Source: a virus. From it: DNA of 64,000 nt. The stretch is from IMG/VR virus record IMGVR_UViG_3300036819_000087, positions 1 to 64,000 of that record; one strand, written 5' to 3'. The notes beneath the pieces are model-generated. The model searched no databases. It worked only from the letters and a program-made list of their open reading frames with translations, and had not been told where the DNA came from. The position numbers and the translations under genes were made by a program. Shown one piece after another: positions 12,853 through 40,877 of the stretch. Positions within the stretch are counted from its first letter, which is position 1; each line of letters opens with the position of its first letter.

Positions 12853-15800
12853 CTACTGGTGGGTGGTGCCGTTGCCGGCGATGCCGAGCTGACCGGACAG
12901 CGCCTGCCAGGCGCGTTCCCGCATCGCGGGGTCCGGGGAGTTGCGCCACTCGTCGGCGAGGTTGCGCATGACCGCCATCTGGGACCGCTCCGCGGCCTTG
13001 GTGACGGTCGGGTTTTCGATCGACCCCACCGGGGCCATCGAAGCTGGGTTGGGGAACGCTGGCCCGCGGTAGGGGGCGACACCCTGGTCGGGTTCCTCGG
13101 CGAGGGCGTTGAGCATCTTGCCCTGCTTGCGCAGCAGGCGGGCCTGCCGGGCCAGGACCTCGCCCTGTTCGTCGAGGCGGGCCAGGAGCGGCACGGTCAC
13201 CTCGGCGAGGGCCTCCTTGATCAGGTCCGGGCTGTATGCGCCTGCCCCGGCCCCGGCCGCTTTGCCGGTCCAGGTCGCGTTCACGGGGACGCTGGCGGGG
13301 AAGCCGAGGGGGGGCAGGCCGAGGACCTCGCGGGCCTCGTTCACCGGCATGTCGCCCTTGATGACCTGTTCGGCGAGCCACTTGCGGGTGCCCTCCGCGT
13401 CGTAGGCCAGGCCGTCAGCGTCCTGGCCGCCGAACCCGTCACCGTCGCCGGCCGAGGCCGACTTGTGGCCTTCCGCCGCCGGGGCGGCCGCGGCCGCGTC
13501 GCCGCTGCCGGCCATGGGGCAGAGGCTGGGGAACGTCTGCGCGATGTGGTCGTGGATCGCGGCCAGCGCCTGGTGGACCTGGTCGCGGGCCGTGTTCCGG
13601 TAGAACAGGCGGCCGCTCTTGTTCGACGGGGAGTCCGCGGCGTGCCCGGCGGTGAGCGCCCCCCGGTCGAACTCGGCGGCGGTGATGTCGCTGGCGGGCA
13701 CCCGGGCCGTGTTCGGCTCCTTGTGCCCCGGCGATGGGGCAGCATGCCCGGCCGTGATGTACGGCCGGTTGAACCGGCCCGGGGACAGCTCCGACGGGGT
13801 GGGGGCGTGGCCGGGGCCCGGGTTGGCGTCCTGGAACGCCTTGTGGACCGCTTCACCCACCTCGGCGAGGACGATCGGGTCGGCGGCCTTCAGCATCACC
13901 GCGTCCTGCCACAGGACCTGCGACTTGGCGGCCTCGTCCAGCGGCGCGGAGGTGGCGGCGGTGAACGCGGCCCGCGCCCACTCGTCCGTGTCAACCACGT
14001 TGGCGAGGGTCGCGCCCGGGTGAGCCTTGGCCACATCGGCTGGGTGGTAGGCGGCGCAGGTCAGGTCGTGGAGGCGGCCGAGGTCACCGGGCACACCGAG
14101 GGTCTTGAACCGGGAGTGGGCGGCCTTCTCGTAGTCAGCGTCGGGGTCGGTGGGCAGCCGGGCGTCGTGTTCGAGGGCCTCGATCGCCTGCCCGTCCGGT
14201 TCCCGGTGCTTCGGCACCGGGGTGGTGTGCTCCCCGCGGACCCCATCACCAGGTGACGGCTTGCCCGCCTTGCTGGCCTTGGCGTCGCTGGCCTCGTCGT
14301 CCTCGTCGTCATCATCCTCGGGGGACTCGTCCCCGTCGTCCCCGTCATCCTCCCCATCATCGGGGTCATCGCCGGAGGCGGTGTCGTCCTCGGCCAGGTC
14401 ATCCCCGCCGTCGTCGTCGGTCTTGCCCTTGGCCAGGTCGGTGTCCTCGACCGCGCCGGCGTCAGCGTCGCCGGCCTTCCGGGCGGGGGGGAGTTTCGCG
14501 CCGCACCCCTCGCAGTGGCTGCCGTCGAAGTCGGAGTGGTGGTTCTTCCCGCACTCCTTGCACGCCCGCTTCCCGGCCTTCTCCACGTCCGCCTCGGCCG
14601 GGCTGCCGCCGATCTCCCCGGTGCCCTTGCAGCGGGGGCACTTCACGTGCCCGTCCCGGATCGTCTTGGTGCCGTGGCAGAGCGTGCATTCGCTCTTGGT
14701 GGTCAGGTCCTCGCTGGTGTCGACACGTGCCGCCTTTCCCGCCCCGTCCTGCCACGAGCCGGGCAGCCGGGCCGCGAACTGCGGCCCCTTCCGGTGGGCG
14801 ATCCTTGTGATGTTGGCGCGGAGCTTGTCCGGCCCGTAGTTGCTGTCGCCGGCCCGGCCGATCGAGGTGGCCGCGTCGTGCACGTCCTGCGGGGTTTTGA
14901 TCGGGTAGGACCGGTCCCGGCCCGCGAAATCGGAGTCCGGGAGGGCGTCGCGGTCGGTGCCGCCGCCCACGTTCGGGTCAAAATCGCGTTTCGCCGACTG
15001 GGCGCTGGTGGACTTGGCGCCGGGCCCGGACCGTTGCGCGTCGTCAAGCTTGGCGTGGGCGGCCGGGTCGGTTTCCTGCGGGTCGTCATCCATCGGCTTG
15101 GCCCGGGTCCGTGGCTTGCGCGGTTCCGGCTCGGCGGGGCTGGTGGCGTCGTCCTCGTCGACCTCATCCGCTGCCGCGGCCTTCCCCGCGGTCTCGCGGG
15201 TGATCGCCTGGGCGTGGGCGAGGTTCCCGGCCGTGGTCTGGTGCTGTTCCGGTTTCGCTGCCGGCTTGGCCCGGCCCGAACTGGTGTGGTGCCGGGCCGC
15301 CGCGGCCTGCTCCTCCTCAGCCTCCTCGTGCGCCTCGTGCGCCTCATGCGCCTCATGGGCAGTGTGGGCGTCGTGTTCGGCGTGCTGGTGCGCCAGGTGC
15401 GCGAGGTGCTCCTCGTGGACCTCGTGCATGACGTGGAGCTGGTGCGCGTCCGGCTTCTTCCCGGCCGCTTCCCGCTGTTCCCCCTGGTGGGCTTCATCCC
15501 ACGCCGTCCAGTCCTTGCCCACCATGCGGGCCTCGGCCTCACGGCGGGCGTCGAGGAGCTTGGCCAGGTCACCGGGGCTGAACGACACCGACACGTCCTC
15601 GGGCAACTCCACCGTCACCGTCTTGCCTCGTCCACGCGCCCACTCCTCACCATCGCCTTGACTGGCCACAACCCGTGCGGCGTCCCCGGCCCGGCCCCGC
15701 CGGGTCTGCCACACCCCGTAACCGCCGCCCGCGCCGTTGGAGAGACGCCCGACCACGTACCCGTTGACGTGGGAGTCGCCGGGCTGCATGTTCCGCGCCT

Positions 15801-16485
15801 CCCGGTCCCCGGCGCCGCCGCCGGGCCCGTCTTTGATCCACCCGTGGGAGTAGCCGTGCGGGCCTTCCTTCCCGGCGAACTCGGGGTCGTCGAGGTCTTC
15901 GCCGGCGGCGTGGTGTTCGGCGAGGGACTTGACCAGCAGGTCAGCGCCGCCGACCTTCCCGGTGAACTCGGCGTGCCCATCCGACCCGGCGGCTTTGGCC
16001 AGCTCGACGTAGCAGCCCCGGTTCGCTGGCCGGTCCACCAGGCTGATTTCGGCGAGTTCACCGCCCTTGATGATCCCGCCGCGGGCTTTGCCGGTCACGT
16101 CCCGGACGATCAGCGGCTTCGCGATCCCCACCGAGAAGGCCCGCAGGTGGCCTTTCTCGCACATCATCCGGGCGACCGGTTCATCGATCGCGGCCTTGAC
16201 CCAGTGGGCGCGGTCACCGTCCCGGTCGATCTCGACTTTCACACCCGACCCGGCCGGCATGAGGCTGGCGTTGTGCTGGACCCGGACGTTCGGGCCGGTC
16301 TGGAACCACGCCTCCATCGCCTTGGCGGACCAGTCCGGGTCGACGATCTGCTCATCAGAGTCGACCTCGGGGGTGGTGGCCTTCCCGTAGACGTACAGGG
16401 TGCCGGTGGCGGGGTCGGTCTCCATCTTCTCGATGGGGAACGAGTGATAGTAGAGGTCGGGGTCGGCGGTGACGGCAGTGGCCAC
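12853..16485 (-). CDS. HK97-type prohead protease fused to cargo modules and scaffold
   Basis: VRVQH, FSVG and EISLVDRPAN protease motifs in the first ~160 aa; then KEGPHGYSHGW tag, His-rich tract, DUF6582-like module, two Zn fingers, acidic tract, C-terminal coiled coil. Confidence 0.85.
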   Translation of the reverse strand: MATAVTADPDLYYHSFPIEKMETDPATGTLYVYGKATTPEVDSDEQIVDPDWSAKAMEAWFQTGPNVRVQHNASLMPAGSGVKVEIDRDGDRAHWVKAAIDEPVARMMCEKGHLRAFSVGIAKPLIVRDVTGKARGGIIKGGELAEISLVDRPANRGCYVELAKAAGSDGHAEFTGKVGGADLLVKSLAEHHAAGEDLDDPEFAGKEGPHGYSHGWIKDGPGGGAGDREARNMQPGDSHVNGYVVGRLSNGAGGGYGVWQTRRGRAGDAARVVASQGDGEEWARGRGKTVTVELPEDVSVSFSPGDLAKLLDARREAEARMVGKDWTAWDEAHQGEQREAAGKKPDAHQLHVMHEVHEEHLAHLAHQHAEHDAHTAHEAHEAHEAHEEAEEEQAAAARHHTSSGRAKPAAKPEQHQTTAGNLAHAQAITRETAGKAAAADEVDEDDATSPAEPEPRKPRTRAKPMDDDPQETDPAAHAKLDDAQRSGPGAKSTSAQSAKRDFDPNVGGGTDRDALPDSDFAGRDRSYPIKTPQDVHDAATSIGRAGDSNYGPDKLRANITRIAHRKGPQFAARLPGSWQDGAGKAARVDTSEDLTTKSECTLCHGTKTIRDGHVKCPRCKGTGEIGGSPAEADVEKAGKRACKECGKNHHSDFDGSHCEGCGAKLPPARKAGDADAGAVEDTDLAKGKTDDDGGDDLAEDDTASGDDPDDGEDDGDDGDESPEDDDDEDDEASDAKASKAGKPSPGDGVRGEHTTPVPKHREPDGQAIEALEHDARLPTDPDADYEKAAHSRFKTLGVPGDLGRLHDLTCAAYHPADVAKAHPGATLANVVDTDEWARAAFTAATSAPLDEAAKSQVLWQDAVMLKAADPIVLAEVGEAVHKAFQDANPGPGHAPTPSELSPGRFNRPYITAGHAAPSPGHKEPNTARVPASDITAAEFDRGALTAGHAADSPSNKSGRLFYRNTARDQVHQALAAIHDHIAQTFPSLCPMAGSGDAAAAAPAAEGHKSASAGDGDGFGGQDADGLAYDAEGTRKWLAEQVIKGDMPVNEAREVLGLPPLGFPASVPVNATWTGKAAGAGAGAYSPDLIKEALAEVTVPLLARLDEQGEVLARQARLLRKQGKMLNALAEEPDQGVAPYRGPAFPNPASMAPVGSIENPTVTKAAERSQMAVMRNLADEWRNSPDPAMRERAWQALSGQLGIAGNGTTHQ

Positions 16486-22509: not shown

Positions 22510-22770
22510 CTATCTGGCTATTTGCCGGTTGGTTCGCTTGATCCGCCGGTCGGCCAGGCGGGAGCCGGCCAGCCGCCACCACGCCGCCTTGACGGGGTTG
22601 CTGTATGTCGCGGCCACCACCCCGAGATCGTGGACGACCGCCGGTTCCGTGTTCCCGCACCCGCCGCACGGCCGGCCCGGGTCACGGCGGTACCCGCACC
22701 GGTCGCAGCCGCGGATGACCACCGCGGCGACCTCGGCCTGCCCGAACGGGACCGCACCGGGCCCGTTCAC
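22510..22770 (-). CDS. Small CxxC protein
   Basis: Two CxxC pairs; GTGA coupling. Confidence 0.5.
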   Translation of the reverse strand: MNGPGAVPFGQAEVAAVVIRGCDRCGYRRDPGRPCGGCGNTEPAVVHDLGVVAATYSNPVKAAWWRLAGSRLADRRIKRTNRQIAR

Positions 22771-23903
22771 CGCCGCCGGCCCAGTTCCTCGTCCAGGCCC
22801 TGCCGGTCCATCGCCGCCTGGATCAGCCGCAGAGACGACGCCGGGACACGGCCGCCACTGCGGGCCTGCCGCTGAAATTCGAGGTTCGCGGCAGCGAGCT
22901 GGCGGGGGGTGAGCGCGGCGACGAACTGGTCCCGCAGGCTCGGTTTCAACGCCCGCAACGTACTGGTCACCGCCCCGCCGTCCTTAGCCTGGGCGGCCAT
23001 CCGAGCGATCGTCTCCGACTGGTCCGGTTTGGGTGCCCGGGACTGGCGGGCGGATGGTTTCCCTGCGAGCCGGTCCCGGATCATCTGGTGGGTGTCGGAC
23101 ACTTCCCCGTGGCGGCCGAGCGTGTCGGCTACATGGGTGAGGTACGAGTCCGCGGCCCGGGCCTCGGCGTCGGACAAGCCGGCCACGGCTTGCCGGCGGC
23201 CGCGTACCCCCCCGGTCGCGCCCCTGGACTCGATGAAATTGACGGCAGACTTGCCCGGGTCGGCGCCCTGCCGGCCCATCGCGGCACCGCCGCGGGCGTG
23301 GAAGTCAGCGACCCGCTCGGCCGCTGGCCGGGTGTCCTCACCGAGGCGGCGTGGTGGCTTGGCGGCGGCGTCGCTGGCCATCACGCCGAGGAGGTCCACC
23401 CCGGCGGCGGCGTGCTGCGCTTGTGATTCGCGGCGGCTTTGCCGGCTGCCTGGCACGTCGAACAGGGACAACGGCTCGGACTCGTCGAAATCTTGCCGCC
23501 GCATCGCCGTCCAGTCCCGGCCACCGGTCTGCCCGGCCGGGGCTGCGGCCTCGGCCGACAGCAGGTCGCCTTGCTGGCTACCCCGGCCCGGTTTGACGGA
23601 AGGGGCCGGGTTGTCGGTGGCCAGGCCGCGCGGCACGAAGTGGCCCGCACCGTTGCCGCCCCGCCCCGCGCCGGGACGGTGCTCGAAGCTGTGCTCGGCC
23701 CCGGAGTCGAACCGGACCCGCACCTTCCGGCCGCCGACGCCGGTGACGCGCCCTCGGCCGAGTTCGGGGTGCTCGATCTGGCCGCCCCCTCCGGGGATGC
23801 CGACGAAAATCCACCCGTGGATGTAGCCGTGGGGGCCGACCTTGAGGAGGTCGGCGAGCTGGGCGGCGGTCATCCGGGTCGGGGTGTCACTGGTCACCGT
23901 CAC
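22767..23903 (-). CDS. [11 protein letters not shown]-tagged head-cluster protein (class B adaptor plus unknown domain)
   Basis: Tag at 23811-23843 followed by HP.LG.G.V...VRFD.G SH3-like segment; GGAGG RBS. Confidence 0.7.
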
Positions 23904-25318
23904 GGGGCACCTCCGCTGTCGTTTTTGCCGTGGTCCATGCGGGCGTGCTGGGCGGGCCAGTAGCCGAGGGCCTCGTGGTGCAAGTTGTTGCAGTAGCCTT
24001 TTGCCTGGTCGGGGGTCATGTGGGCGTGTTCGGTGACCAGGGCGACACAGCGCATGAAGTCCCCGTCGGTGCCCCACTTGATGGCGTCGGCGAAGGCGTA
24101 GTGGGTGGGGCCGCCGTGCCCGTGCCGGGTCCAGTACTCGCGGAGCGTCCGCGCGGCGCCTTTCTCGACCGTGTCGCCGTCGAGGGCGTCGAGGACGGGG
24201 CCGAGCGACGCGGCCAGCTCGGGCCGGACCGCTGGGTTGTCGCGGAGGAGGCCGGGCGCCCACCAGGCCAGCGCCTCGGTCTGGTCACCGTCGGGGTCGT
24301 CCGGGTTGATCACCTCGTCGCGGCCCTCATGGATCGGCACGTCCGCCTCGGCTGGGACGGTCAGCACGAACCCCTCGTAGATGCCGTGCCGCCACCGGCC
24401 GGTGATCTGGCCGCGGGGTGGCTGGCAGCCGGTCTCCTCGGCCCACTCCCGGGCCGCGCCCATGATCGGGGTTTCCCCTGCCTCGATGTGGCCGCCGGGG
24501 AACTCCCACATGCCCGCAGCGGGGTCATCCGGGTCGTTCGCGCGTTGCAGCATGAGGACACGGCCGGTGTCCTCGGCCCGGACGGCCAGGCCAGCGACCT
24601 CGGCCGTCTTGGTTTTGCGCACGGCCGCGCCGCAATGCGGGCAGCCCCGGTCGTGGACGGCCTGGTCGCGGAACACCTCGTCGCAGAACGGCGCGGTCAG
24701 CTCGTTGCCTTCGAGGGTGCCGCTGGCGTCGCACCGGTAGCACTCGTGGCCGGTCGGGTGCTCGCCTGCGCCTCCGCAGCATCCGCAGCCGACCCGGCTG
24801 GTTTTCCCGGACGGGCCGGGTGGGCGGCCGCGGGGCCCGTGGCCGCCGGGGCTGGACGTGCCGGCCTGCTGGCTGCCGTGGCCACCTTGCGGCCACCAGC
24901 CGTCCATGTACGTGTTCGGCCAGTCGGTGCCCGGCCGGGTGGGTACGCCTCGACCGGATGGGGCGGCCGCGTCGTCCTCGTCGTCGGGGACCGTGGCCAC
25001 ACGCGGGACGGGCTGGTCACCGTCCCACCGTGGATAGTCCCCGCCCGCCGACGGGCCCACGGAACCGCCTTGGGCGCTAGCCGGGTCGAGGGGGCCGCCG
25101 GGGCCGTGCTGGGCGCCGTTCGCGTCATGCGGCCGGTGCACTGCGGCACCGCCGCCCGCGCTGTAGCCGCCGGGGTCATCCTGCCGCTGGTCGGTCCAGG
25201 TTTCCTGCCCGTTCAGGTCAACCGTGCGGCCCTTGCTGGTGTCGTCCAGGCCGAGGTCGATGTGGCCGACCAGGTGTGGCTGGAAGTCGGCCATCCGCTC
25301 GGCCATGCCCCCGGTCAC
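23900..25318 (-). CDS. Multidomain NUDIX hydrolase, head-cluster protein
   Basis: Complete Nudix box [23 protein letters not shown]; Zn finger upstream; C-terminal LREYW...[12 protein letters not shown]...KGYC module. Confidence 0.8.
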
Positions 25319-27108
25319 GCGGCCACCGACTTCGGCAGGGCCACGAAATAGGCGTCGGTGACATCCACGCGGCCAGGGTGGGGGCCTGACTTCAGGAACG
25401 CGAGCGGCTGGCCAGCGTCGAGGATGACCTCGTTTTCGGGGAACTCGGCGGCCGTGCCCGTCCACACCACCGGGGTTCCGGCTGGGGTCATGATGTGCAT
25501 GACCGTGGTCCCGGACCGGTTGGAGGCGAACCGGCCACCCGGTGACAGGGTGGTCGAGGAGAACCCGGGGTCGGCGATCACGTCGCCGCGGGCCAGCCCA
25601 TCGAACGTCATCGGGCCTTCGATCTGGCGGAGGAGGGTGAGGTCCTCGGGTAGCGGCTGCATCGCCGACGACAGCGCGGCGGCGACCGGGCCACCGTCGC
25701 CGTCGGCTCGCAGGCCGCCGTTGACCGCGGTGTACTCCGGGCCGGTGTATGCCTGGATGGCCTTGGCCTGCCCGGGGGTGTAGTGGAACGCGGGGTCGAG
25801 GTGCTCCTGGCGGTACTGGGTGGCCTCGTCGAACCGGAGTTCGCGGGGATGCAGCGTCCCGGCGTGGTCGCGGGCCCACTGGCCCGCGTGCTCGCTGATC
25901 TCCTCGCCCGCACCGGACCGTACCCAGTGGCCGTGGGAGCCGCGCAGCTCGTGCTCCCACGCCGCCTTGATCACGGCCTCGGCGAGCGCGGCCTGGTGCT
26001 GCGCGAGCACGTCCTCGTAGCCGTTGAGGTCCTCGGCCTTGACCACGGGTTTCGGCCAGGTGCCGGTGATGTCGAGGCCGTGGACCACGGTGGGCATCGG
26101 CGCGCACCTACAGTTGGGATGACCTGGTGGCCCCAGATCCCCTGACGGGAACAGGGCCAGGAGCGGGATGCCACCCTCGGCCTCGTTCCTGCGGCACACC
26201 GGGCAGACCCGCTCATCGGGGGCGACCGCCCACTCTTTCCCCTCGACCCCGTGCTCGATGTACTGGTCGAAACTCGCTGCGGTGACGGCCCGGGCGATCT
26301 CGGTCCGGGCGATCATCGGGGCCCGCTGAGGCACCCGCAAGATGCTCTCGAGTCTCCCCGCGAGGTCTTCCCACGAGTCGCCGTTGGCGACGGCGTCGGC
26401 GATCTCGTCGGCCAGATCTTGCATCCTGGTCTGGGCGATCGACCGGATCATGGAGATGCCGTGGGAGGCCAGCAGTGCCTGGAGGCGGGGGGCGGTCGCG
26501 ATGCCCTGGGCGGCTTCGAGGTCACCGGGTGTCCAGGTCCCCCAGTCGGGGATCTCCTGGCGGGCGATCCCGCGGGCCGAGTGATGCCCGAGGTACCACG
26601 CCTCGGTCCAGAGCCGCCGCAGCGTGGCACCGACGTGGGCGCCGATCCCGTCGGAGATCAGGTCAACGAGGCCCTGCCTGGTTGCGGCCAGCCGGCCCGC
26701 CCACCAGTCCCGCAGCAGACCCGTCGCGTTACTGGTCGCCGCTTTGAACGCTTGGGTGATCTGGTCGGTGTAGACGCTGGCCAGCGTCAGGTCATAGACC
26801 CAGCCAGGCCAGGCAGCGGGCGTCGGAGGGGCCGGCGGGACTGGTTGACCAGCCGGGCCCGTCGGCGGGGTCGGTGGGACTTTTGGGTCAGCATCGCCAC
26901 CCGCGGCGGCGGCCTTGCTGGTGTGGCCGGACGGTTCGGTCCACACGTACCCGTTGCTGTACCCGTCGAGGTAGGCGGCGGCACCACGCCGGGCGGCCAC
27001 GTCGGCCATCGACTGGAGGCCGGGGGTGGAGGCGACCAGGCCGTTGCCGGTGTCGGTGATCGTCCCGGCCGGGCCCCGCGCGGTGTGCACCGTCCAGACC
27101 GCGGTCAC
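25315..27108 (-). CDS. MuF (phage Mu gpF-like) minor head protein fused to an ADP-ribosyltransferase
   Basis: [17 protein letters not shown] and PPGHPNCRC MuF motifs; C-terminal R...FSSTT...ENE (R-S-E, VIP2-like). Confidence 0.88.
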
Positions 27109-28490
27109 GCCGCTGCCTCGTTCTCAGCGTCGGCGACCCGGTCGCGGAGCCGGGTGAGTGCACCCATCGTCTGGTCGAACATTTCCTCGGGGAACAGGTC
27201 AGTGGCGTACTCGGTGTCATCATCGTCGTTGAGGGCGTTGAGTTCGCGGGCCGCCTGGTCAAACGCGGGCTTGATCGCTTCTACCCGGGCGGTGATCGCG
27301 TCGAGGCCGGCGGAACTGATCGGCGTGTTCCCGTCGTCGAGTTCTTCGAGGAGGTGGTCGGTGAATGGGCTGGTGTTGCCCAGCCAGCCGGTCCCGTCGT
27401 CGGCGAGCGCCTCCCACGTGCCGTTGTTGTCGATCGGGACGGGGGTGCCGTCGCTGGCGATCAGCACGTTCCCGGAGTGCCGATCCTGGTGGCCGGTGAT
27501 CGCGTCGAATACACCGATCCGGGCCCCGGCCGGGGTGCTCATCGCCTTGGTCAGAGACCCCGTGGGTGCTTCGGCGCCTGGTGTCGCGTCCCCGACGAAC
27601 GGCATGTAAACCTCGCGGGGGCTGGTCCTGACAATGTGCGGGGCGCCAGCACCGACCGCGTCGGCGACACGGGAGGCCAGCAGATCACGGATGGCGTTCG
27701 CCTTGGAAACCTTCTCCGTGATCGGGTTGTGGGTGCCGGACGGGTATTCCTTGTGCACCCACTTGCTGCCGTCGGGGAACGTCTCGATGGTGGTGTACGC
27801 CTGCATGCCCTCGGTGGACGGCGTTTTCACCGTGGGTTCACCGGACCGGAACGCGGCGGCGAGCCGTTTGGCGGTCTCCTCGTGCCCCTCCCCCGCGGGC
27901 TTCTCGGACCGCCACGTGCCCGCTACCGGGCCGGGTTCCGGTTTACGGGCGGCTGGGGTGTGCATGGGCCCGGGTGCGGCTTGGTCTGCGGGCCGGGCCC
28001 CCGCCTGGTTGGCTCGCCTGTTGTACCGGCGGGACACCGACCTCAACGCGGCACCCCGGCTGTCGTGGCTGGTCTGGTCGCCGTTGGCGTGGTGGGCGAC
28101 GAACAGGCCGTTCTCGTCCCGGGCCACGTGCCCGACCGCCCAGCCGGTCTTGCGGTGGACGATCCCGCCATCTTTGGCGACGGCCAGGTCGTCGGCCTTG
28201 ATGTGGCCAGGCTTCTCCCCACAGGGCGGCCGCACACAGATGTACCCGTGGATGTAACCCTCGGGGCCGACTTTGGTCAGGTCCGGGACGAACGCCTTGG
28301 CCAGCTCGCCGCGGGCTGCGGCGAACCCCTGGTGCCATGCGGTCGCGGCCTGCCGGACCAGCAACGGGCCCGCATGCGGGTCTGGTGCCGGATGGTCGAG
28401 GACGCCGCCGGCGTGGCGGGTGTGGGCGGCGCGGCGGCCGGCCATGTGCGCGGCGGCGATCACGTCACCGCGGTCAACTACCGGGGCCAC
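27105..28490 (-). CDS. Tagged head-cluster protein with HipA/PI3-PI4-kinase-like domain
   Basis: KVGPEGYIHGY tag; WVHK, FDAITGHQDRHSGNVLI and PIDN kinase motifs. Confidence 0.78.
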   Translation of the reverse strand: MAPVVDRGDVIAAAHMAGRRAAHTRHAGGVLDHPAPDPHAGPLLVRQAATAWHQGFAAARGELAKAFVPDLTKVGPEGYIHGYICVRPPCGEKPGHIKADDLAVAKDGGIVHRKTGWAVGHVARDENGLFVAHHANGDQTSHDSRGAALRSVSRRYNRRANQAGARPADQAAPGPMHTPAARKPEPGPVAGTWRSEKPAGEGHEETAKRLAAAFRSGEPTVKTPSTEGMQAYTTIETFPDGSKWVHKEYPSGTHNPITEKVSKANAIRDLLASRVADAVGAGAPHIVRTSPREVYMPFVGDATPGAEAPTGSLTKAMSTPAGARIGVFDAITGHQDRHSGNVLIASDGTPVPIDNNGTWEALADDGTGWLGNTSPFTDHLLEELDDGNTPISSAGLDAITARVEAIKPAFDQAARELNALNDDDDTEYATDLFPEEMFDQTMGALTRLRDRVADAENEAAA

Positions 28491-28518: not shown

Positions 28519-29433
28519 TCATGCGTAGAAGTCACCCCCGCGCGGTCCGCCCCCGGCGGCCTGGCCGAGGAGCATCGACTGGAAATCGGCGCTGGTGGGG
28601 CGCCCGTTCTGGTCCCACCATTCGCCCAGCTCGGACGAGGCGTATTTGCGGGCCCGGTTCTCGGGTCCGGTGAACAGGGACCACGGGTCGATGTCGGCTT
28701 TCTGGCCTTCCCGGTTGAGCATGACCCCGTTCGTGGCGGCCTCGGCGTCGAGGACCCGGCGTTGCACATCGGTTTTGAAGGCGTCGCGGGCGAGTTCCTC
28801 GAAGTTGCGGCCCTTGAATCCCTGGGTGCGCAACTGCTGGATGGACGCTTGCCGGGTCATCGTGTCGGTGTCGGTGCCGTAGGAGTGCGCCCAGGCGTCC
28901 TCGGGGTTTTCCCCCTCGTCCACCAGCCCCTGATAGACCCGGTTGCGGTCCCCTTCCGATGTGGGGGTTTGGGCGTAGAGGCCAGCGACGCGGGCTTTGC
29001 GTTCGTCGCGGTCGCGGCGGTCGAGTTCGGCGACCGCGTGCTCGAACCGCTTCCCATCCCCGGACGCGAGTTCGCGGGCGAGTTCGTCGTCGGTCATCCG
29101 CTCGAAGTGGCCGGGGCCCTGGCCGGGCCGGACCGGGAACGAGGCGGCGTGGCCGTCGTCGAACGCGACCGACACGTGCGGGTGGCCGTGCTCACCTGCG
29201 GGCTCGGATTCGGTGACCTGCCCGTGCCCGTGGTGCGGGTGGAACACGTGGTCGCCGGCCGCGGGGATGCCCACGAAGATCCAGCCGTGGATGTAGCCGT
29301 GCGGACCCACCTTGACCAGGCCGGCGGCGGTGGCGGTCTTGACTGCGGGGCTGGGCAGCATCGCGTCGAGCAGCACGTCGTCGCAGCGGAAATCGTCGGG
29401 GAACCATGAAGGGAGCCCGGCCTTAGTGGGCAC
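28519..29433 (-). CDS. [11 protein letters not shown]-tagged head-cluster protein (class B adaptor plus unknown helical domain)
   Basis: Tag at 29281-29313; C-terminal AEAATNGVMLN...ARKYASSEL.EWW..NGRPT module. Confidence 0.72.
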   Translation of the reverse strand: MPTKAGLPSWFPDDFRCDDVLLDAMLPSPAVKTATAAGLVKVGPHGYIHGWIFVGIPAAGDHVFHPHHGHGQVTESEPAGEHGHPHVSVAFDDGHAASFPVRPGQGPGHFERMTDDELARELASGDGKRFEHAVAELDRRDRDERKARVAGLYAQTPTSEGDRNRVYQGLVDEGENPEDAWAHSYGTDTDTMTRQASIQQLRTQGFKGRNFEELARDAFKTDVQRRVLDAEAATNGVMLNREGQKADIDPWSLFTGPENRARKYASSELGEWWDQNGRPTSADFQSMLLGQAAGGGPRGGDFYA

Positions 29434-32400
29434 TGAAATCGCCTTGCGGACCGAGCTGGACGTAGGTCATGCCGTTTTTCTGCGACACAGACTGGACCGG
29501 GAACCGGCCACCGGTGACGACCTCTTGAAGTTTGGCGCGGTATTCGAGTTCGCTGCCGCCGCCTTCCTCGATGGGGCTGAGGTCCAGGCCCTTCGCGCCG
29601 GGAGCTGCCACGATGACAACACCCCCCTCGCCGCCGAACGCTTTCGCTGTGTCCTCTGACTTGCCCCACGACGCGATCGGGAGGTCAACGGTTCCGCCGG
29701 CCTTGAACATGCGGCGGATCTCGGCTGACGGGAGGGTCAGGCCCCGGTACAGCGGCGTGCGCTGGGCGGTGGCGTCGTCCTCGATGAGTTTCATGAAATC
29801 GTGGGCGTCGCGTGCACCGGGTGTCATGGTGGCCGGTGGTTTCCCGGTCTTCAGGAGGCGGTGCAATTCGTTTGTGAATTGGGCGTCACGGAGAGTGCCC
29901 TGGGTCCGGTTTGAGTACCGGAACGCTTTCGTCCACATGGTGGTCAGGCGGCGTTTCTCAGCCAGGTTGACGCCGCCGGCTGGTGTGGGCGGGGCGGCCG
30001 GGTTCTCATGGGAGTGGGAGACCCCCACGCCACCGAGTGTCCTGCTTATGCGTTCGCTGGGTGGTTTATGCATCTCCTCATGCCGCGTGAGAAGATCCTT
30101 TTTCGGCGGGTTTTTGCTGCCTATGCGGCGGCCGATAGCTGGGCCGCCGCCGTGGTAGTTCTCCAGGTGGTGGATGAGTTCGTCTTTACTCATCCGGTTC
30201 GCGGGGGTCGAGCTAGTCGCAGGTTCGTGCTCGTGCTCGTGCTCGTGCTGTGGTGCTGGTTTCGCTGTGGCTGGGCGGCTGGTACTGCCCGAGTTGTGGT
30301 GGCGGGCGATCGCCTTGACCGCATCGGGGCGGGCGCCGTGGACGGTGCGGCTGCCATCGGAGTGGTTTGCGGTCCACCCGCCGGCTTCACTGCGGGCGAC
30401 ATGCCCGACCGCCCACCCGGACGGCTTGTGCACGACTCCGCCGTCCGAACGGACCGTCAGATCCGCGGCGCGGAGACGGGCTGGCTTCTCCCCGCACGGC
30501 GGCCGGACACACACCCAGCCGTGGACGTACCCCTCGGGGCCGACCTTGCCGACGAACGAGCCGGCGGCCATGCTGGTTGCCTCGTCGACGGTGAAGCCCT
30601 TATCCAGGTCTTCCGCGATCTCGTCGAGGATCTCGCCGGACAGGTGCCGCGGCTCCCACGTGCCGACCGCGCGGCCCTTGCGGAGGTGCCGGGCAAGCGC
30701 GTCGAGTTCAGCCAGCGCCGCCTTCGAGGCGGGGTGGGGCTGGGGGTGGCCCAGCAGGCCCTGGACCAGGGTGCCCGGGATGAAGTCGGGGTCGGCGGGG
30801 AACTTCCCGGCCGCGACCTGCGCGGCCGCGGCCGACACGATCCCCGTCGCCACCGTGTGCGCGGCGTCGTGCTTGAACACGTCGGGGTCGTCGCCGAGCA
30901 TGGCCGCCTCGATCCGCTCGGCCTCGGCCGACTTGTCCGCGCCCGAGGCGGAACGCTGGCCGCCGCCACGGCCGCTCCCGGTCCCGTGTGCGGCGACGGC
31001 GGCGTCGTGGCCGGGTGACTGCCCCCGGGCGGGCGCCTGGGCGGCCGTGGCCCGTCCTGGGCCGGTCTGCGGCTTGGCCTGGCCGGCGGGCAGCGCGGCG
31101 CGCTGCGGCGCGCCCGCCACCTGCTGCGGGGCACCGGGCTGGCCAGGTGGCGCGCCGGCGGGGTGCGCGGCGTCCGGCTGCGCGAATCCGGCCTGCGGCT
31201 GCCCCTGGGTGTTCATCTGCCCCAGCGGCAGGAACCCCGTCGCGCTGGCCCAGCCCGGGTCGCTGGTCTCGGGCAACCCCCACGGCTGTTTGCCGATCTC
31301 GCCGCGGCCCTCGTCGATCGACAGGAGCCCGGCACCGATCTGGGTGACCAGCGTGGTCGTCTTGGTGGCCTCATCCTCTTCCTCTTCGAGCCCTTCGAAG
31401 AGGAACCGCATGTCGTCCTGGTGACAGACCTCTTGCAGGACAAAGTCGCAGATCGCGCCGATATATTCGAGGGTCGGCTTGGTCGCTTTCCGTTCCTGGC
31501 TGCCCTGGCTCATTTTGGCCATTTGGTTGGACGCGCCCGGCGACATTGTGGTGGAAACCTTGGGGGCGATACCGAGTTCCATCGGGGACACGTCGAACGA
31601 CATGCACACCCAGTTCATGACAACCTCGTCGAACTGGTCCGCCAAAGCGGCCGGCCGCTGCGGTTCCGTCTTGGACCCGGGCGGGAGAACGATGATCTTG
31701 TGGTGAAATGCGGGGTCGCCGGCGATCGCGTTCAGGGCGTCCTGGAGCTCGCGGATCTGGTTCGGGGTCATCGTCGCGTCGCCCGGCGAAATGTACACGG
31801 CGGGGACCGTGCCCTCGCGGAAAAAGTCCAGCGCATAGCCCTGCTTCTGCAACCCGGCCATGATCGGCAGGAGGGCCCGCTCCACGGGCGGGAACCCGTA
31901 CGGGGTCCAGCGGCGCTTCTCCACCGGCAGGTACAGGAGCTGGTCGCCGCGGAACTTTTTCCACGCCGACTCGCCCACCCCGGACTGCTCAATGTCCCGG
32001 CCAGTGATCACCGACGTGAGGTCGGTGCGGGGCACCCCGTACAGGTACTGCTGGTAGCCGGGCGCCGGGGGGCGGGGGGTGGCGCCGTTCAGGTCATACA
32101 GGGGCCGGATCGTTTCCCCATCAATCAGGCTGAACGAGTCCAGGTCCGACCCCAGCAGTCCCTTACCCAAACCCCGGGCCCGCTTCGGCTGCAAGAAAAT
32201 GGACAGCGCGTCGAAAACGAGCATCTGCTCCATCGCGTCGCCGATCCAGCTCGACCACGTGAAATAATCGGGATCCGGGCGGTGAAAGAACCGCATGGCC
32301 TTCCCGCGGCGTTCCCCGAATTCGCGCATGGCTTTTTTGTCGCCGCGCATCGCTTTGGCCGCGTCGGGGGTCGGGACAATATCCCACCCGATGCCCTTGA

Positions 32401-32812
32401 TCTCGTTTTTACGCAACTGGATGCAGGACCGGGCCACCGAGTACAGGTCGGCGATCGACCGCAACGTCTGGAACGTGGCCAGTTTGATGCCCTCGGTGCC
32501 AGGCTGACCGGTCGGCAGGTTCCAGCCGACCTCGTACTGCTCCCGCCTGGGCACGGCACGCCCGTCGTCCTCGGGGGTGTCGACCGGGACGGGGAGGATC
32601 GGGGAGAACGGGCCGAACGCGCCCGCGGTGAAATCCTGCGGCGGACGAGGCAGGAACGGGCCATAGGCGGAGGCGTAGCCGTTGCTGGTGTCCTGGTCCC
32701 GGACCGCTGGGGAGACCTGCCCGTACCACTGGCCGCCCTGCGGCGGCGGGGTGGGCTGCGCGGTACCGGGGACGGCCTTGGTCGCGGCCAGGATGGCTCG
32801 GGGAGAAGCCAC
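29423..32812 (-). CDS. Portal protein with C-terminal tagged ADP-ribosyltransferase-like extension
   Basis: Portal motifs (IDGETIRP, YGFPPVE, FFREGTVP, FDVSPMELG, LSIDEGR); tag at 30515-30547; LYRG...ASW...QEV ART-like end; GGAGGT RBS before GTG 32812. Confidence 0.88.
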   Translation of the reverse strand: MASPRAILAATKAVPGTAQPTPPPQGGQWYGQVSPAVRDQDTSNGYASAYGPFLPRPPQDFTAGAFGPFSPILPVPVDTPEDDGRAVPRREQYEVGWNLPTGQPGTEGIKLATFQTLRSIADLYSVARSCIQLRKNEIKGIGWDIVPTPDAAKAMRGDKKAMREFGERRGKAMRFFHRPDPDYFTWSSWIGDAMEQMLVFDALSIFLQPKRARGLGKGLLGSDLDSFSLIDGETIRPLYDLNGATPRPPAPGYQQYLYGVPRTDLTSVITGRDIEQSGVGESAWKKFRGDQLLYLPVEKRRWTPYGFPPVERALLPIMAGLQKQGYALDFFREGTVPAVYISPGDATMTPNQIRELQDALNAIAGDPAFHHKIIVLPPGSKTEPQRPAALADQFDEVVMNWVCMSFDVSPMELGIAPKVSTTMSPGASNQMAKMSQGSQERKATKPTLEYIGAICDFVLQEVCHQDDMRFLFEGLEEEEDEATKTTTLVTQIGAGLLSIDEGRGEIGKQPWGLPETSDPGWASATGFLPLGQMNTQGQPQAGFAQPDAAHPAGAPPGQPGAPQQVAGAPQRAALPAGQAKPQTGPGRATAAQAPARGQSPGHDAAVAAHGTGSGRGGGQRSASGADKSAEAERIEAAMLGDDPDVFKHDAAHTVATGIVSAAAAQVAAGKFPADPDFIPGTLVQGLLGHPQPHPASKAALAELDALARHLRKGRAVGTWEPRHLSGEILDEIAEDLDKGFTVDEATSMAAGSFVGKVGPEGYVHGWVCVRPPCGEKPARLRAADLTVRSDGGVVHKPSGWAVGHVARSEAGGWTANHSDGSRTVHGARPDAVKAIARHHNSGSTSRPATAKPAPQHEHEHEHEPATSSTPANRMSKDELIHHLENYHGGGPAIGRRIGSKNPPKKDLLTRHEEMHKPPSERISRTLGGVGVSHSHENPAAPPTPAGGVNLAEKRRLTTMWTKAFRYSNRTQGTLRDAQFTNELHRLLKTGKPPATMTPGARDAHDFMKLIEDDATAQRTPLYRGLTLPSAEIRRMFKAGGTVDLPIASWGKSEDTAKAFGGEGGVVIVAAPGAKGLDLSPIEEGGGSELEYRAKLQEVVTGGRFPVQSVSQKNGMTYVQLGPQGDFSAH

Positions 32813-32847
32813 GGGCACCTCCCCCGGGTGTGGTTGGCTGGTGCTCG

Positions 32848-33044
32848 TGATGATCAAAATGGACGTGTACGCGGCGGCGGGTGAACGGTTCGCGCCGGGC
32901 GTGTTCACCGACGTGGTCGGGAAGCCGGCCACCTGGACCGTGGGCGGTCAGGCGTGGCTGGGCCGGATCTGGTCGGCGAACATGGCCGACGACGGGACCG
33001 AGGCGACCCTCGCGATCGAGGTCGAGGATCCGCCGGCGGCGTAA
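32848..33044 (+). CDS. Small hypothetical protein
   Basis: Plausible beta-protein composition; start approximate. Confidence 0.4.
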
Positions 33045-39308: not shown

Positions 39309-40877
39309 TTAGGCCGGAGCCGGTTCGGTCGCGTCGGCCAGGTCGGCGGGGACCGCCGTCCCGCAATGCGGGCAGGTTTTCTTCCCCGCGGACAGGTACC
39401 CGTGGCCGCAGCCGGCGCATTTGACCACACCGTAGGCACCCAGCCAACTGCCGCTGATCAGGTCCTTCATGTCGGTGAACCCCCACACCAGCGCGTCGAG
39501 CCGGTCCGGTGACTCGGGGTCGAGCGGGGACCAGGAGCAGAGCTGGTCTTCCAGGAGCGGGAACGACCCGAGGTGATGGATGCGGTGCTGCTCATACAGC
39601 GCACTGATTGGTTCCGCACGGGTCGCTTTGCCGTGGGTGGCGCGGACGGCCCGGTAGGCGATCCCCGGGTCGACCGCGTGGAGCAGGGAGCCGATGTAGT
39701 CGCCGCCGTTGTTGACCTCGGCCACGACCCGGTCCGCGTCGTGATGCTTGGCCGCCCACACCGCTTTCACCATCACCTGCTGGGGGGTGCCGCGCATCGT
39801 GTAGTCGGCGATCACGAACCCGTTGCCGTCCCGGGAGGCCCCGACCACGATGATCCCGGTCTCCGCCGAGCTTTCGCCGTCGGAGACGGCCGGGTCGAGG
39901 GCGACGACCACGCGGATCATGTCCGGGACCGGCACCGCAGGCCACCGGTCCTGGTCGATCCAGTCGCGGCGCCACAGGGCGTCCTCGCGGTCCTCCAGGA
40001 GCTCGGCGTCGAGTTCCTGCCGGCCGAGGCGAGTGCCCATCAGGGGCGCGATGACCTCGGCCTTGTACGTGTCGGACAGGTTGGCCAGGTTGTCGACGGT
40101 CCGGCCGCGGGTGATGATCGTGGTCGCCCGCTGCATCAAACCGGCCCGGGCCGGATCCGGGTCCTGGGTGCGGAGCAGGCTGACGGGGCGGGGCGTGGTC
40201 GCCACCACGATCTGCGTCCTGTAATCATCCGGCCAGCCCGGCTTCGCGGGGAGGCGGGTGCCGATTGTCAGGTTCGACCAGGTCGTGTCGGTGATCGTCC
40301 CCTTGTGCGCGTCGGTCCAGAACGCCGACTCATCCCCCCACGCGAAATGATGCTGGGGTCCGCGCAGGCGGCGGGGCTTCTCCGAGCTGTACGTTTTGAA
40401 CCGGGACCCGTTGGCCATGTACAGCTCACCGAGCGACCGGTTCCAGGCGACCTCGGGGTCACCGCCGCGCAGCTCACCCGGTTCGAGGCAGCCCAGCAGG
40501 CCGGATTCGCCTTCCACCATGGTGTCGCGGGCGTCCGCGATCGTGCTGGCGACCAGCGCGATCCGGGCCCCCGGGTACTTGCGGGCCTTCTCCGCGCTCC
40601 ATTCGGCCGCCGTCCTCGACTTGCCCCAGCCCCGCCCGGCCAGGATGAGCCACACGAACCAGTCCCCCGCCGGGGCCAACTGGTCCGGCCGCGCGACCTC
40701 GACCCACGGCTTGTGCGGGTCGAGTTCCTCAACGTCGAGGAGATCCAGGAGCCGCTGACGTTCGGTGGGGTCAAGCTTCGCGAGGAACCGGCGCCGCGTC
40801 TCCAGATCCCACGCCAGCCACCTCGTCCGCAAGCTGGAAGAGGCGGGCGTCGATCGCGTCAATGGTCCTGACCTCAT
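39309..40877 (-). CDS. terL: Terminase large subunit
   Basis: AGRGWGKS Walker A, WGDE Walker B, TTP coupling motif, nuclease VALDPA and SPDRLDA. Confidence 0.95.
   Translation of the reverse strand: MRSGPLTRSTPASSSLRTRWLAWDLETRRRFLAKLDPTERQRLLDLLDVEELDPHKPWVEVARPDQLAPAGDWFVWLILAGRGWGKSRTAAEWSAEKARKYPGARIALVASTIADARDTMVEGESGLLGCLEPGELRGGDPEVAWNRSLGELYMANGSRFKTYSSEKPRRLRGPQHHFAWGDESAFWTDAHKGTITDTTWSNLTIGTRLPAKPGWPDDYRTQIVVATTPRPVSLLRTQDPDPARAGLMQRATTIITRGRTVDNLANLSDTYKAEVIAPLMGTRLGRQELDAELLEDREDALWRRDWIDQDRWPAVPVPDMIRVVVALDPAVSDGESSAETGIIVVGASRDGNGFVIADYTMRGTPQQVMVKAVWAAKHHDADRVVAEVNNGGDYIGSLLHAVDPGIAYRAVRATHGKATRAEPISALYEQHRIHHLGSFPLLEDQLCSWSPLDPESPDRLDALVWGFTDMKDLISGSWLGAYGVVKCAGCGHGYLSAGKKTCPHCGTAVPADLADATEPAPA

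Follow-up and report, generated by a model that had tools for sequence, protein, structure and literature searches.

The window analysed here comprises positions 1 to 64,000 of a 107,282-bp IMG record (IMGVR_UViG_3300036819_000087) from an uncultured, high-GC phage. On its minus strand, a single open frame encodes a portal protein whose long C-terminal extension ends in a predicted ADP-ribosyltransferase (ART) domain. The frame extends back to a GTG at 32932 and ends with the stop codon 29423–29425; residues are numbered here from that first GTG (residue 1). The true start is most likely the GTG at 32812 (ORF residue 41), because the gene-caller product (P0003) and a homologue (P0007) both begin there, giving a portal-ART gene at 29423–32812 that encodes 1129 aa plus stop. 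The large terminase (39309–40877) lies upstream on the same strand, and a MuF-ART gene (25315–27108) and a Nudix gene lie downstream, again on the same strand, which sets the portal gene within a head module. All features named in an earlier sequence-only reading of this DNA were found in the ORF list and translation where that reading had placed them.

The portal domain (residues 166–544; 31301–32437, minus strand) is of the HK97/SPP1 type. It matches PF04860 above the cut-off (E 1.8e-11; 44.2 bits vs 39.1), residues 122–711 match the portal family phrog_2662 (E 3e-39), and annotated portals of cultured phages were matched by tblastn. The domain had been predicted to stop near LSIDEGR...PWG; the Pfam match ends at residue 544, between LSIDEGR (537–543) and QPWG (549–552). 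PF04233 (MuF) is absent from the portal ORF in the Pfam search, and the MuF domain of this phage resides in the separate gene at 25315–27108, so the protein lacks the N-terminal MuF that defines MuF polymorphic toxins. We found 742 related portals at E ≤ 1e-30, PF04860 being present in most; among the best 120 of these, the median length is 1205 aa. Their cargo includes Nudix, MuF, ART, 2H, zeta-type kinase or ParB domains. Long cargo-bearing tails are the norm in this portal lineage; tails of 400 to 1000 residues are normal here, which matters for portal annotation and bears on the reading of capsid-interior density in cryo-EM maps.

Between portal and enzyme, the linker, helical module, tag with adaptor and His-rich module listed by the sequence-only reading are all present in one frame. 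A Pro/Gln/Ala/Gly low-complexity linker, read from the translation (residues 562–733; 30734–31249, minus strand), is only 33–42% identical to that of P0007, vs about 90% in the portal domain. It leads into a three-helix module (residues 734–793; 30554–30733, minus strand; AF2 helices with pLDDT 85–91) containing AELDALARHLRKG at residues 741–753 (30674–30712); P0007, P0008 and P0009 likewise have a homologous stretch after their portal domains. The linear tag motif KVGPEGYVHGW (residues 796–806; 30515–30547, minus strand) comes next and forms the upstream edge of the cassette described below; the genome has five tag copies, and the portal's is predicted to be disordered (pLDDT under 50). We do not endorse calling the fifth tagged gene a ‘protease polyprotein’, as Pfam and PHROGs gave no identification. 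After the tag stands a beta-rich ‘adaptor’ domain (residues 815–880; 30293–30490, minus strand), modelled by AF2 as five strands and one helix (pLDDT 94–98) and duplicated in a kinase-like protein at 27105–28490 (45% identity to 27960–28214 by tblastn). A His-rich disordered run (893–912, with HEHEHEHE at 896–903) and a three-helix pre-ART module (916–966) complete the series (30035–30256, minus strand; AF2). The pre-ART helices are kept in P0005, P0010, P0011 and L002, and occupy a separate frame in L006 and L007.

Fold searches in BFVD and the PDB with a model of residues 731–990 gave nothing convincing for the adaptor. This model retrieved only small unnamed proteins from BFVD and, from the PDB, generic helical bundles at Z ≤ 5.6, in a list that mostly covered model residues 1–79. 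By sequence, the extension is unmatched in Pfam (E ≤ 10), PHROGs, NCBIfam and PDB sequences.

The last domain (residues 990–1169; 29426–29965, minus strand) is, by its predicted fold, a divergent R-S-E (cholera-toxin-like) ART, as judged from AF2, Foldseek, VIA and triad conservation. Its AF2 model (pLDDT 92.3, pTM 0.87) displays the N-terminal helical lobe and split beta-sheet core of the ARTC fold. Foldseek retrieved 90 PDB chains at E ≤ 1e-3, those listed being almost all ARTs, with Tre1 (6dre/6drh) as the best match (E about 6e-7). In a VIA comparison with 48,161 chains, the top 22 were ARTs or ART-fold domains (Z 7.6–11.9), including 6drh_B (Z 11.9, rmsd 3.4, 142 aa, 21% identity) and, among the R-S-E enzymes, HopU1 (Z 11.0), C3stau2 (Z 10.7) and VIP2; the matches cover residues 1–177 of the 180-aa domain. 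The R-S-E-like assignment of LYRG...IASWG...LQEVV had been made from motifs and was to fall if structure prediction and Foldseek returned another fold; run on the C-terminal 180 aa, they returned an ART fold matching R-S-E ARTs.

Sequence models do not see this relationship. The domain goes unrecognised by the sequence models of Pfam, NCBIfam, PHROG and the PDB, and the Pfam ART families (PF03496, PF01129 and PF18760) gave no match even at E ≤ 10, with either the domain or the whole extension. Likewise, none of 22 members of the ART family matched the ART models at E ≤ 1, and a family profile searched against PDB sequences found only a chance match, a designed protein. The domain therefore stands outside the Pfam ART families, and its link to known ARTs is transitive only, via P0039: the family HMM matches residues 613–737 of that protein (E 2.5e-7), where Pfam reports PF01129/PF03496. 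Language-model neighbours are PF03496 clusters (Alt/VIP2-type). A recent duplication involving the phage's own MuF-ART was rejected, since profile and BLAST comparisons show no similarity. In further searches, tblastn of the domain against 50,697 phage records gave no match, an IMG/VR scan found none with the single protein and 7 loci with an alignment (A2), and a scan of GTDB genomes with a further alignment (A4) found none. The locus adds an ART family that standard annotation overlooks.

How the enzyme came to lie here is suggested by P0007, whose portal is 88% identical and carries no enzyme. P0007 aligns to portal residues 41–812, at 77–95% identity per 60-residue block over 41–579; this similarity came from a Smith-Waterman alignment, and BLASTP did not report the match. 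At the tag, P0007 switches from portal-like sequence to sequence resembling orf304, the gene that follows the portal-ART gene: orf304 residues 39–304 are 82% identical to P0007 residues 709–974. Starting at the gene's own tag (29281–29313) and extending to its end, the orf304 body (28519–29313, minus strand) corresponds to the C-terminal part of the portal in P0007 and matches, in PHROG, the C-termini of head morphogenesis proteins. Because P0007 runs from the tag into the orf304 body, the alignment places the enzyme on a cassette bounded by two tag copies. Its order would be adaptor, His-rich stretch, helical module, ART, stop, new start and a 40-aa leader running into the second tag. The enzyme may have arrived on this cassette, or can be lost with it; insertion would have split an ancestral portal tail in two, giving today's portal-ART and orf304. 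Since every other ART-family member found lies outside portal proteins, the portal position of the enzyme may be recent and incidental. The two portals, with and without enzyme, offer a natural view of cargo exchange.

The junction between the two genes is itself conserved. The gene for orf304 (28519–29433, minus strand) starts at a GTG 11 nt within the ART frame and opens with a conserved leader of ~25 aa (start with leader, 29314–29433). The 11-nt overlap, TTCAGTGCYCACTRA and an upstream purine-rich stretch are common to the window and L002–L006, and leader and GTG are conserved in the window and all five of these distinct related loci. Complex modelling sets the leader on the ART domain with a score of 0.69, vs 0.01 for the best control; this score is a model confidence obtained from small purpose-built alignments, and 58 of 80 solved complexes scored that high, against 2 of 110 mismatched pairs. 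Agreement between runs extends to at least 84% of contacts, with partner pLDDT of at least 63. The leader of this translationally coupled gene probably binds the enzyme, as far as the model indicates. It could inhibit the enzyme up to delivery, or tether orf304 non-covalently. For a possible toxin–immunity pair, in which the neighbour would bind and neutralise the enzyme, the locus offers this overlapping, conserved leader ORF and its modelled binding; ADP-ribosylhydrolase and Macro domains are absent by sequence from the 107-kb record. The leader is a testable candidate for keeping the enzyme quiet or held in place.

The C-terminus of solved portals points into the capsid interior, and ARTs carried in phage heads are regarded as a first strike on the host. 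To our knowledge, T4 Alt is the sole head-carried ART studied in depth. We favour, at a probability of roughly 60%, the explanation that the portal carries a C-terminal ART cargo that came on, or can be lost with, the tag cassette, is bound by the leader and is packaged and delivered to the host. The divergent R-S-E ART would be held on a long flexible linker at the portal C-terminus and probably built into the head along with the portal, in up to 12 copies; twelve per virion at the DNA exit are predicted. By analogy with T4 Alt, the enzyme would probably act on the host at DNA ejection. Since the portal subunit remains in the capsid, injection requires cleavage, and action on the host would need a cut that frees the enzyme from the portal. 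We infer its packaging, copy number, release, activity and target.

A more far-reaching picture, which we regard as tentative and on balance doubtful, is that a large family of ~100-kb high-GC phages arranges its head cargo as tag-to-tag cassettes, with KVGPxGYxHGW marking swap points in portal, MuF and other head proteins and with the ART clamped by its 25-residue leader. The coupled leader would then silence a previously undescribed ART family until ejection, or chain the next cargo to it. In that case, the leader would give enzymes packaged in virions an immunity or tether element no larger than a peptide, and would account for a portal tail holding together after a cassette has split it.

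The catalytic triad comprises Arg1063 (29744–29746; in LYRG, 1061–1064) on domain strand 72–76, Ser1088 (29669–29671; in IASWG, 1086–1090) on strand 92–101, and the catalytic Glu1137 (29522–29524) just ahead of strand 149–163, all on the minus strand; by position in the model, these are the strands expected for beta1, beta2 and beta5. Among 63 family domains, the Arg is present in all and the Ser in 61, and the catalytic Glu is missing in three. The −2 position is Leu1135 (29528–29530, minus strand; A-K-L-Q-E, within LQEVV, 1135–1139), so the domain lacks the R-S-EXE signature of arginine-specific enzymes. The sequence-only reading had correctly noted Q-E in place of E-x-E and had expected a target different from that of the MuF ART: the portal-linked domain has L-Q-E, and E-N-E is found in the phage's MuF-linked ART. 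At −2, the closest relatives show L, M or Q and their sister group E: in a quick-search, midpoint-rooted tree, the 7 non-ExE sequences cluster together (SH-aLRT 92), and 17 ExE sequences are their sister group. On this tree, loss of the first Glu is a derived trait within a small subclade.

In the R-S-EXE rule, a Glu two residues before the catalytic Glu goes with arginine specificity (PMC3102197). Together with this rule, the variant motif with Leu at −2 predicts a non-arginine target, NAD hydrolysis or no transfer; judged by sequence, the substrate is probably not arginine, or the activity is mainly NAD+ hydrolysis. ARTs without Glu at −2 include inactive members and pure NADases, such as human ART4 (KXE), whose activity is undetectable, and rat ART2 (QXE), which is an NADase only (PMC3102197). 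The Leu would also fit a rival reading in which the ART fold has lost transferase function and persists as an NAD+-binding, NAD+-hydrolysing, or purely structural and docking module, for instance a socket holding the orf304 leader on the portal. The modelled peptide-binding surface fits such a role in that it includes domain Arg74 and strands 93–98 and 152–154, and docking would reconnect orf304 with the portal, from whose ancestral tail the cassette separated it. We nevertheless consider loss of transferase function unlikely. All 7 non-ExE sequences retain Arg, Ser and Glu at 39–70% identity to the window's domain, which is unexpected for a pure scaffold, and C3, pertussis toxin and pierisin lack ExE yet are active on other acceptors (PMC3102197).

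An alternative raised for head-module ARTs in PMC9503650 may also apply here: the active enzyme would work in the virion-producing cell or on phage components, with no injection, by modifying packaging proteins or DNA or by countering a defence that senses portal or terminase. As the product of a late structural gene, portal-ART would be free in the cell before assembly, and Pfam and PHROGs identified neither a cleavage site nor a protease for the release step; these searches also left a prohead protease and the genes at 12853–16485 and 22767–24263 without identification. Against this, the ART family is found C-terminal on multi-domain proteins with the head-module tag and MuF, a pattern earlier read as packaged cargo, and an enzyme held or masked by a leader suits storage better than immediate action. 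We rate action in the producing cell or on phage components as somewhat less probable still than loss of transferase function, and retain delivery to the host as the better explanation.

T4 Alt, an arginine-modifying enzyme with ExE, is a free internal protein that an N-terminal capsid-targeting sequence loads into the head and that the prohead protease trims. The window's enzyme resembles it as a late R-S-E class ART proposed to travel in the head and act early in the next infection, but forms one covalent chain with the portal, carries L-Q-E and would need a processing step for release. Tri1 blocks Tre1 partly through an N-terminal extension. The Tre1–Tri1 pair of Serratia proteamaculans, a type VI ART toxin and the protein that confers immunity to it (6dre/6drh), provides the best structural match and a further parallel, in that a (here predicted) bacteria-targeting ART is proposed to be touched by the N-terminal part of its neighbour. 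HMMER, however, detects no sequence relationship between Tre1 and the portal-linked ART, and the partner here is not an ADP-ribosylhydrolase but a leader of 25 aa that heads proteins of differing length. MuF toxins (Jamet et al. 2017, PMC5576092) similarly carry swappable C-terminal effectors, ARTs included, on a head morphogenesis protein, whereas the anchor here is a portal without a MuF domain, in a phage that also has a classical MuF-ART.

The locus is a new example of a known phage habit, that of placing swappable enzymes on head proteins. Iyer 2017 (PMC5512222) and its 2022 successor (PMC9503650) already describe portal–effector fusions, including ARTs, and long cargo-bearing portals, and propose head packaging with injection; ARTs are there the commonest macromolecule-modifying domain and are sometimes fused to head or portal proteins. 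The present protein agrees with these polyvalent effectors as a single ORF in the head module of a terminase–portal phage, with an enzyme fused to a head protein and cargo that varies between close relatives. It differs in that its ART escapes Pfam, PF18760 (ART-PolyVal) and PF03496 included, in that its fusion can be traced to a tag-bounded cassette, and in that an overlapping leader ORF follows the enzyme; neither cassette nor leader was met in the available portions of PMC5512222 or PMC9503650.

An assembly or sequencing artefact merging a portal gene with an independent effector gene, a danger the sequence-only reading had itself raised, would suit a sequence known from metagenomic assemblies only and a family whose other members, as found, are not fused to portals, but is highly improbable: an independent Logan contig (20,598 bp) encodes the identical 1129-aa protein, GC3 is 0.70–1.00 in all 60-codon blocks of the frame, linker too, P0007, P0008 and P0009 unite portal, linker and helical module (P0007 the tag as well), tag or adaptor is joined to ART in P0004, P0006 and L003–L007, and the length is in keeping with the related portals. 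The portal-ART fusion is real, because a second assembly agrees, codon bias holds and homologues cross each junction.

The IMG/VR virus record spans 107,282 bp, is estimated to be 96% complete, and contributes its first 64 kb as the window (G+C ~70%). The head module lies on the minus strand and comprises the large terminase (39309–40877), the portal-ART ORF (29423–32932), the 304-aa orf304 (28519–29433), a 461-aa ORF with a weak kinase-like match (27105–28490), a MuF protein whose C-terminus is a classical ADP-ribosyltransferase (ART; 25315–27108), and a Nudix gene. The portal-ART ORF is open for 1169 codons, numbered here from its first GTG at 32932; the gene-caller product (P0003) and a close homologue from another assembly (P0007) both start at residue 41, which makes 1129 residues the most likely length of the protein. 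The Pfam portal domain occupies residues 166–544 (44.2 bits against a cut-off of 39.1), and a phrog_2662 match spans residues 122–711.

The sequence-only reading proposed a portal with a long C-terminal extension ending in an ART-like domain, and translation of the ORF placed every motif it quoted where it had been described. Portal and extension constitute one real protein. GC3 is 0.70–1.00 in each 60-codon block, low-complexity linker included; the same 1129-aa protein is present in the IMG record and in a separate Logan assembly (20,598-bp contig); and homologues bridge all junctions of the ORF. Portal, linker and helical module are joined in single proteins P0007, P0008 and P0009 (in P0007 together with the tag KVGPEGYVHGW, residues 796–806), and tag or adaptor, a small β-rich domain (residues 815–880), is joined to the C-terminal ART domain in P0004, P0006 and the related IMG/VR loci L003–L007. 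The long-tailed relatives of this portal agree. A fusion artefact, which that reading had raised against itself, is contradicted by GC3, the Logan assembly and the homologues alike.

The last 180 residues (990–1169) were not recognized by the sequence libraries searched (Pfam, PHROGs, NCBIfam and PDB sequences). HMMER recovered 53 relatives among 1.84 billion representatives; most are multi-domain proteins with this domain at their C-terminus, and several of these also contain a classical ART, Nudix, alpha/beta hydrolase or MuF. An AlphaFold model built on an alignment of 22 of the 53 reached a mean pLDDT of 92.3 and a pTM of 0.87. Foldseek matched it to 90 PDB chains at E ≤ 1e-3, and among the matches listed nearly all are ARTs, with Tre1 on top (E ~6e-7), bearing out the ART-like assignment of the C-terminal domain. 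In an independent all-against-all structural search (48,161 chains), places 1–22 were all ARTs or ART-fold domains, each match spanning the whole domain; Tre1 was best (Z 11.9, rmsd 3.4, 142 aa), accompanied by XopAI (Z 11.1), HopU1 (11.0) and C3stau2 (10.7), and also by Vis, C2-I, ART2.2 and VIP2. The nearest neighbours in a language-model search were PF03496 clusters, and the family HMM matches residues 613–737 of the relative P0039 (E 2.5e-7), a stretch that Pfam assigns to PF01129/PF03496; judged by these matches, P0039 is a sequence bridge from this family to known ARTs. The predicted fold of the last 180 residues is that of an ADP-ribosyltransferase. Two or three ART-like copies occur within one polyvalent protein in P0030, P0034, P0035, P0037, P0039, P0040, P0046, P0048 and P0053, distant family members of which some also carry MuF, GNAT, HNH or pentapeptide repeats.

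All 63 domain copies compared have the x-R-G Arg, 61 have the [AS]-S-[WF] Ser, and all but three have the Glu that precedes V-V-T-G-G; the AlphaFold model places them (Arg1063, Ser1088 and Glu1137 in the window's protein) on strands corresponding to ART β1, β2 and β5. Two positions before the catalytic residue, the family core has Glu; the window's protein has Leu (A-K-L-Q-E), and L, M or Q stands at this position in its six nearest relatives. The seven sequences without Glu-x-Glu (ExE) cluster together (SH-aLRT 92) in a quick tree rooted at its midpoint, with 17 ExE sequences as their sister group. That this non-ExE subclade keeps Arg, Ser and Glu, at 39–70% identity to the domain in the window, speaks for a functional putative enzyme. 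The Glu at −2 determines arginine specificity; among ARTs without it, C3, pertussis toxin and pierisin modify other acceptors, rat ART2 only hydrolyses NAD+, and human ART4 is inactive (PMC3102197). The portal-linked motif is L-Q-E and that of the phage's MuF-linked ART is E-N-E; profile and BLAST comparisons detected no similarity between these two domains. The sequence-only reading had taken Q-E in place of E-x-E to suggest a target other than that of the MuF ART, which is reasonable if the portal-linked domain is active.

P0007, a 974-aa portal, aligns with residues 41–812 of the window's ORF, at 77–95% identity per 60-residue block over residues 41–579 and 33–42% in the linker; its portal domain, whose similarity was found by Smith–Waterman alignment and was not reported by three BLASTP runs, is 88% identical to the window's. 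Past the tag, P0007 lacks adaptor and ART and instead runs into the body of orf304: it is 82% identical to orf304 residues 39–304 and ends at the same C-terminus. Compared with P0007, the phage of the window has ~1.2 kb extra between two tag copies, encoding the adaptor, a His-rich run, a three-helix module, the ART, a stop, a new start and a 40-residue leader into the second tag. By this comparison the ART extension is a cassette; GC3 within it is somewhat lower (0.70–0.83). Five tag copies occur in the window's genome and up to six in related loci. Two of the five are KEGPHGYSHGW within 15814–15879 (minus) in the large ORF 12853–16485 and another within 23787–23897 (minus) in the large ORF 22767–24263. 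Neither ORF received a name from Pfam or PHROGs, by which a prohead protease identity for 12853–16485 was not confirmed. AF2 predicts the tag to be disordered between well-folded modules, which fits a linear motif for a common partner, a recombination joint, or both.

The 461-aa protein (27105–28490, minus) carries the tag copy KVGPEGYIHGY, an adaptor copy 45% identical to the portal's and, C-terminally, a weak PI3/PI4-kinase-like match with HQDRHSGN (Pfam E 0.0035, short of the cut-off); this protein is likely to be a further cargo enzyme of the head. Residues 115–289 of orf304 match the C-terminal ends of the PHROG 'head maturation protease' and 'head morphogenesis' families (phrog_1752, E 2e-32). 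The three-helix His-rich module preceding the ART (30035–30187, minus; KDELIHHLENYH...RHEEMH) occupies the same position in the non-ExE subclade (P0005, P0010, P0011 and L002) and lies in a separate frame in L006 and L007.

In the window, and likewise in 5/5 distinct related loci (L002–L006; L007 duplicates L006 and is not counted), a GTG lying 11 nt within the ART frame starts the next gene. The leader ORF occupies 29314–29433 (minus), overlapping the ART stop by 11 nt, and its counterparts lie at L002:10530, L003:10524, L004:10527, L005:4783 and L006:10521. In all six, a purine-rich, SD-like stretch stands 7–10 nt upstream of the GTG, which sits within the conserved string TTCAGTGCYCACTRA; this overlap accounts for the constancy of the ART family's last residues (Q-x-D-F-S-A-H). 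Conservation of the leader protein is limited to its first ~25 residues (M-[LP]-T-x-x-G-L-P-x-W-F-P-x-D-F...), and the remainder varies from a 53-aa charged tail up to 506 aa. A complex model of ART domain and leader scored 0.69 (best of 3 controls, 0.01), a mark reached by 58/80 solved complexes and 2/110 mismatched pairs, counts that are only rough as self-made alignments were used; contact agreement between runs was at least 84% and partner pLDDT at least 63. The predicted interface comprises Arg74 and residues 93–98, 152–154 and 174–178 (domain numbering), so the leader site would abut the catalytic sheet, which need not mean that it covers the NAD+ site. The model supports, but does not demonstrate, binding of the leader to the ART domain, where it may act as an inhibitor silencing the enzyme until delivery; alternatively, it may be a tether holding on to the following cargo protein, which here is the one-time portal tail. 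No ARH or Macro domain was detected by sequence in the 107-kb record.

In solved portals the C-terminus faces the capsid interior, so a tail on each of the 12 subunits would put cargo within the head, close to the channel's inner mouth. T4 Alt is known to act in the next host. To do likewise, the enzyme would have to be cut free of the portal; Pfam and PHROGs identified no cleavage site or protease for this step. PMC5512222 and PMC9503650 propose action in the next host for such head-protein fusions, and describe effector domains on portals (PBECR, 2H, InPase, Nudix) as well as ARTs joined to head or portal proteins, so this kind of fusion is known. The passages of the two papers that were consulted contain neither this ART family, missed by current family models, nor its non-ExE subclade, the portal pair with and without enzyme that exposes the tag-bounded cassette, or the overlapping leader placed on the enzyme by modelling.

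The portal domain has at least 742 relatives (642–2046 aa) at E ≤ 1e-30, with a median length of 1205 aa among the best 120 of the 742; by these lengths, long tails are normal in this lineage. A tally of Pfam assignments over the same best 120 gave Nudix in ~65, MuF in 14 and 2H in 4, and more rarely a PF03496 ART (3), a zeta-type kinase (1) or ParB (1). The window's ART family occurs in 1/120 of these closest long portals, the window's own, and the tag in 8/120. Many of the long portals of this lineage (proteins P0070–P0187) lie on contigs of ~100–110 kb, and three contain inteins.
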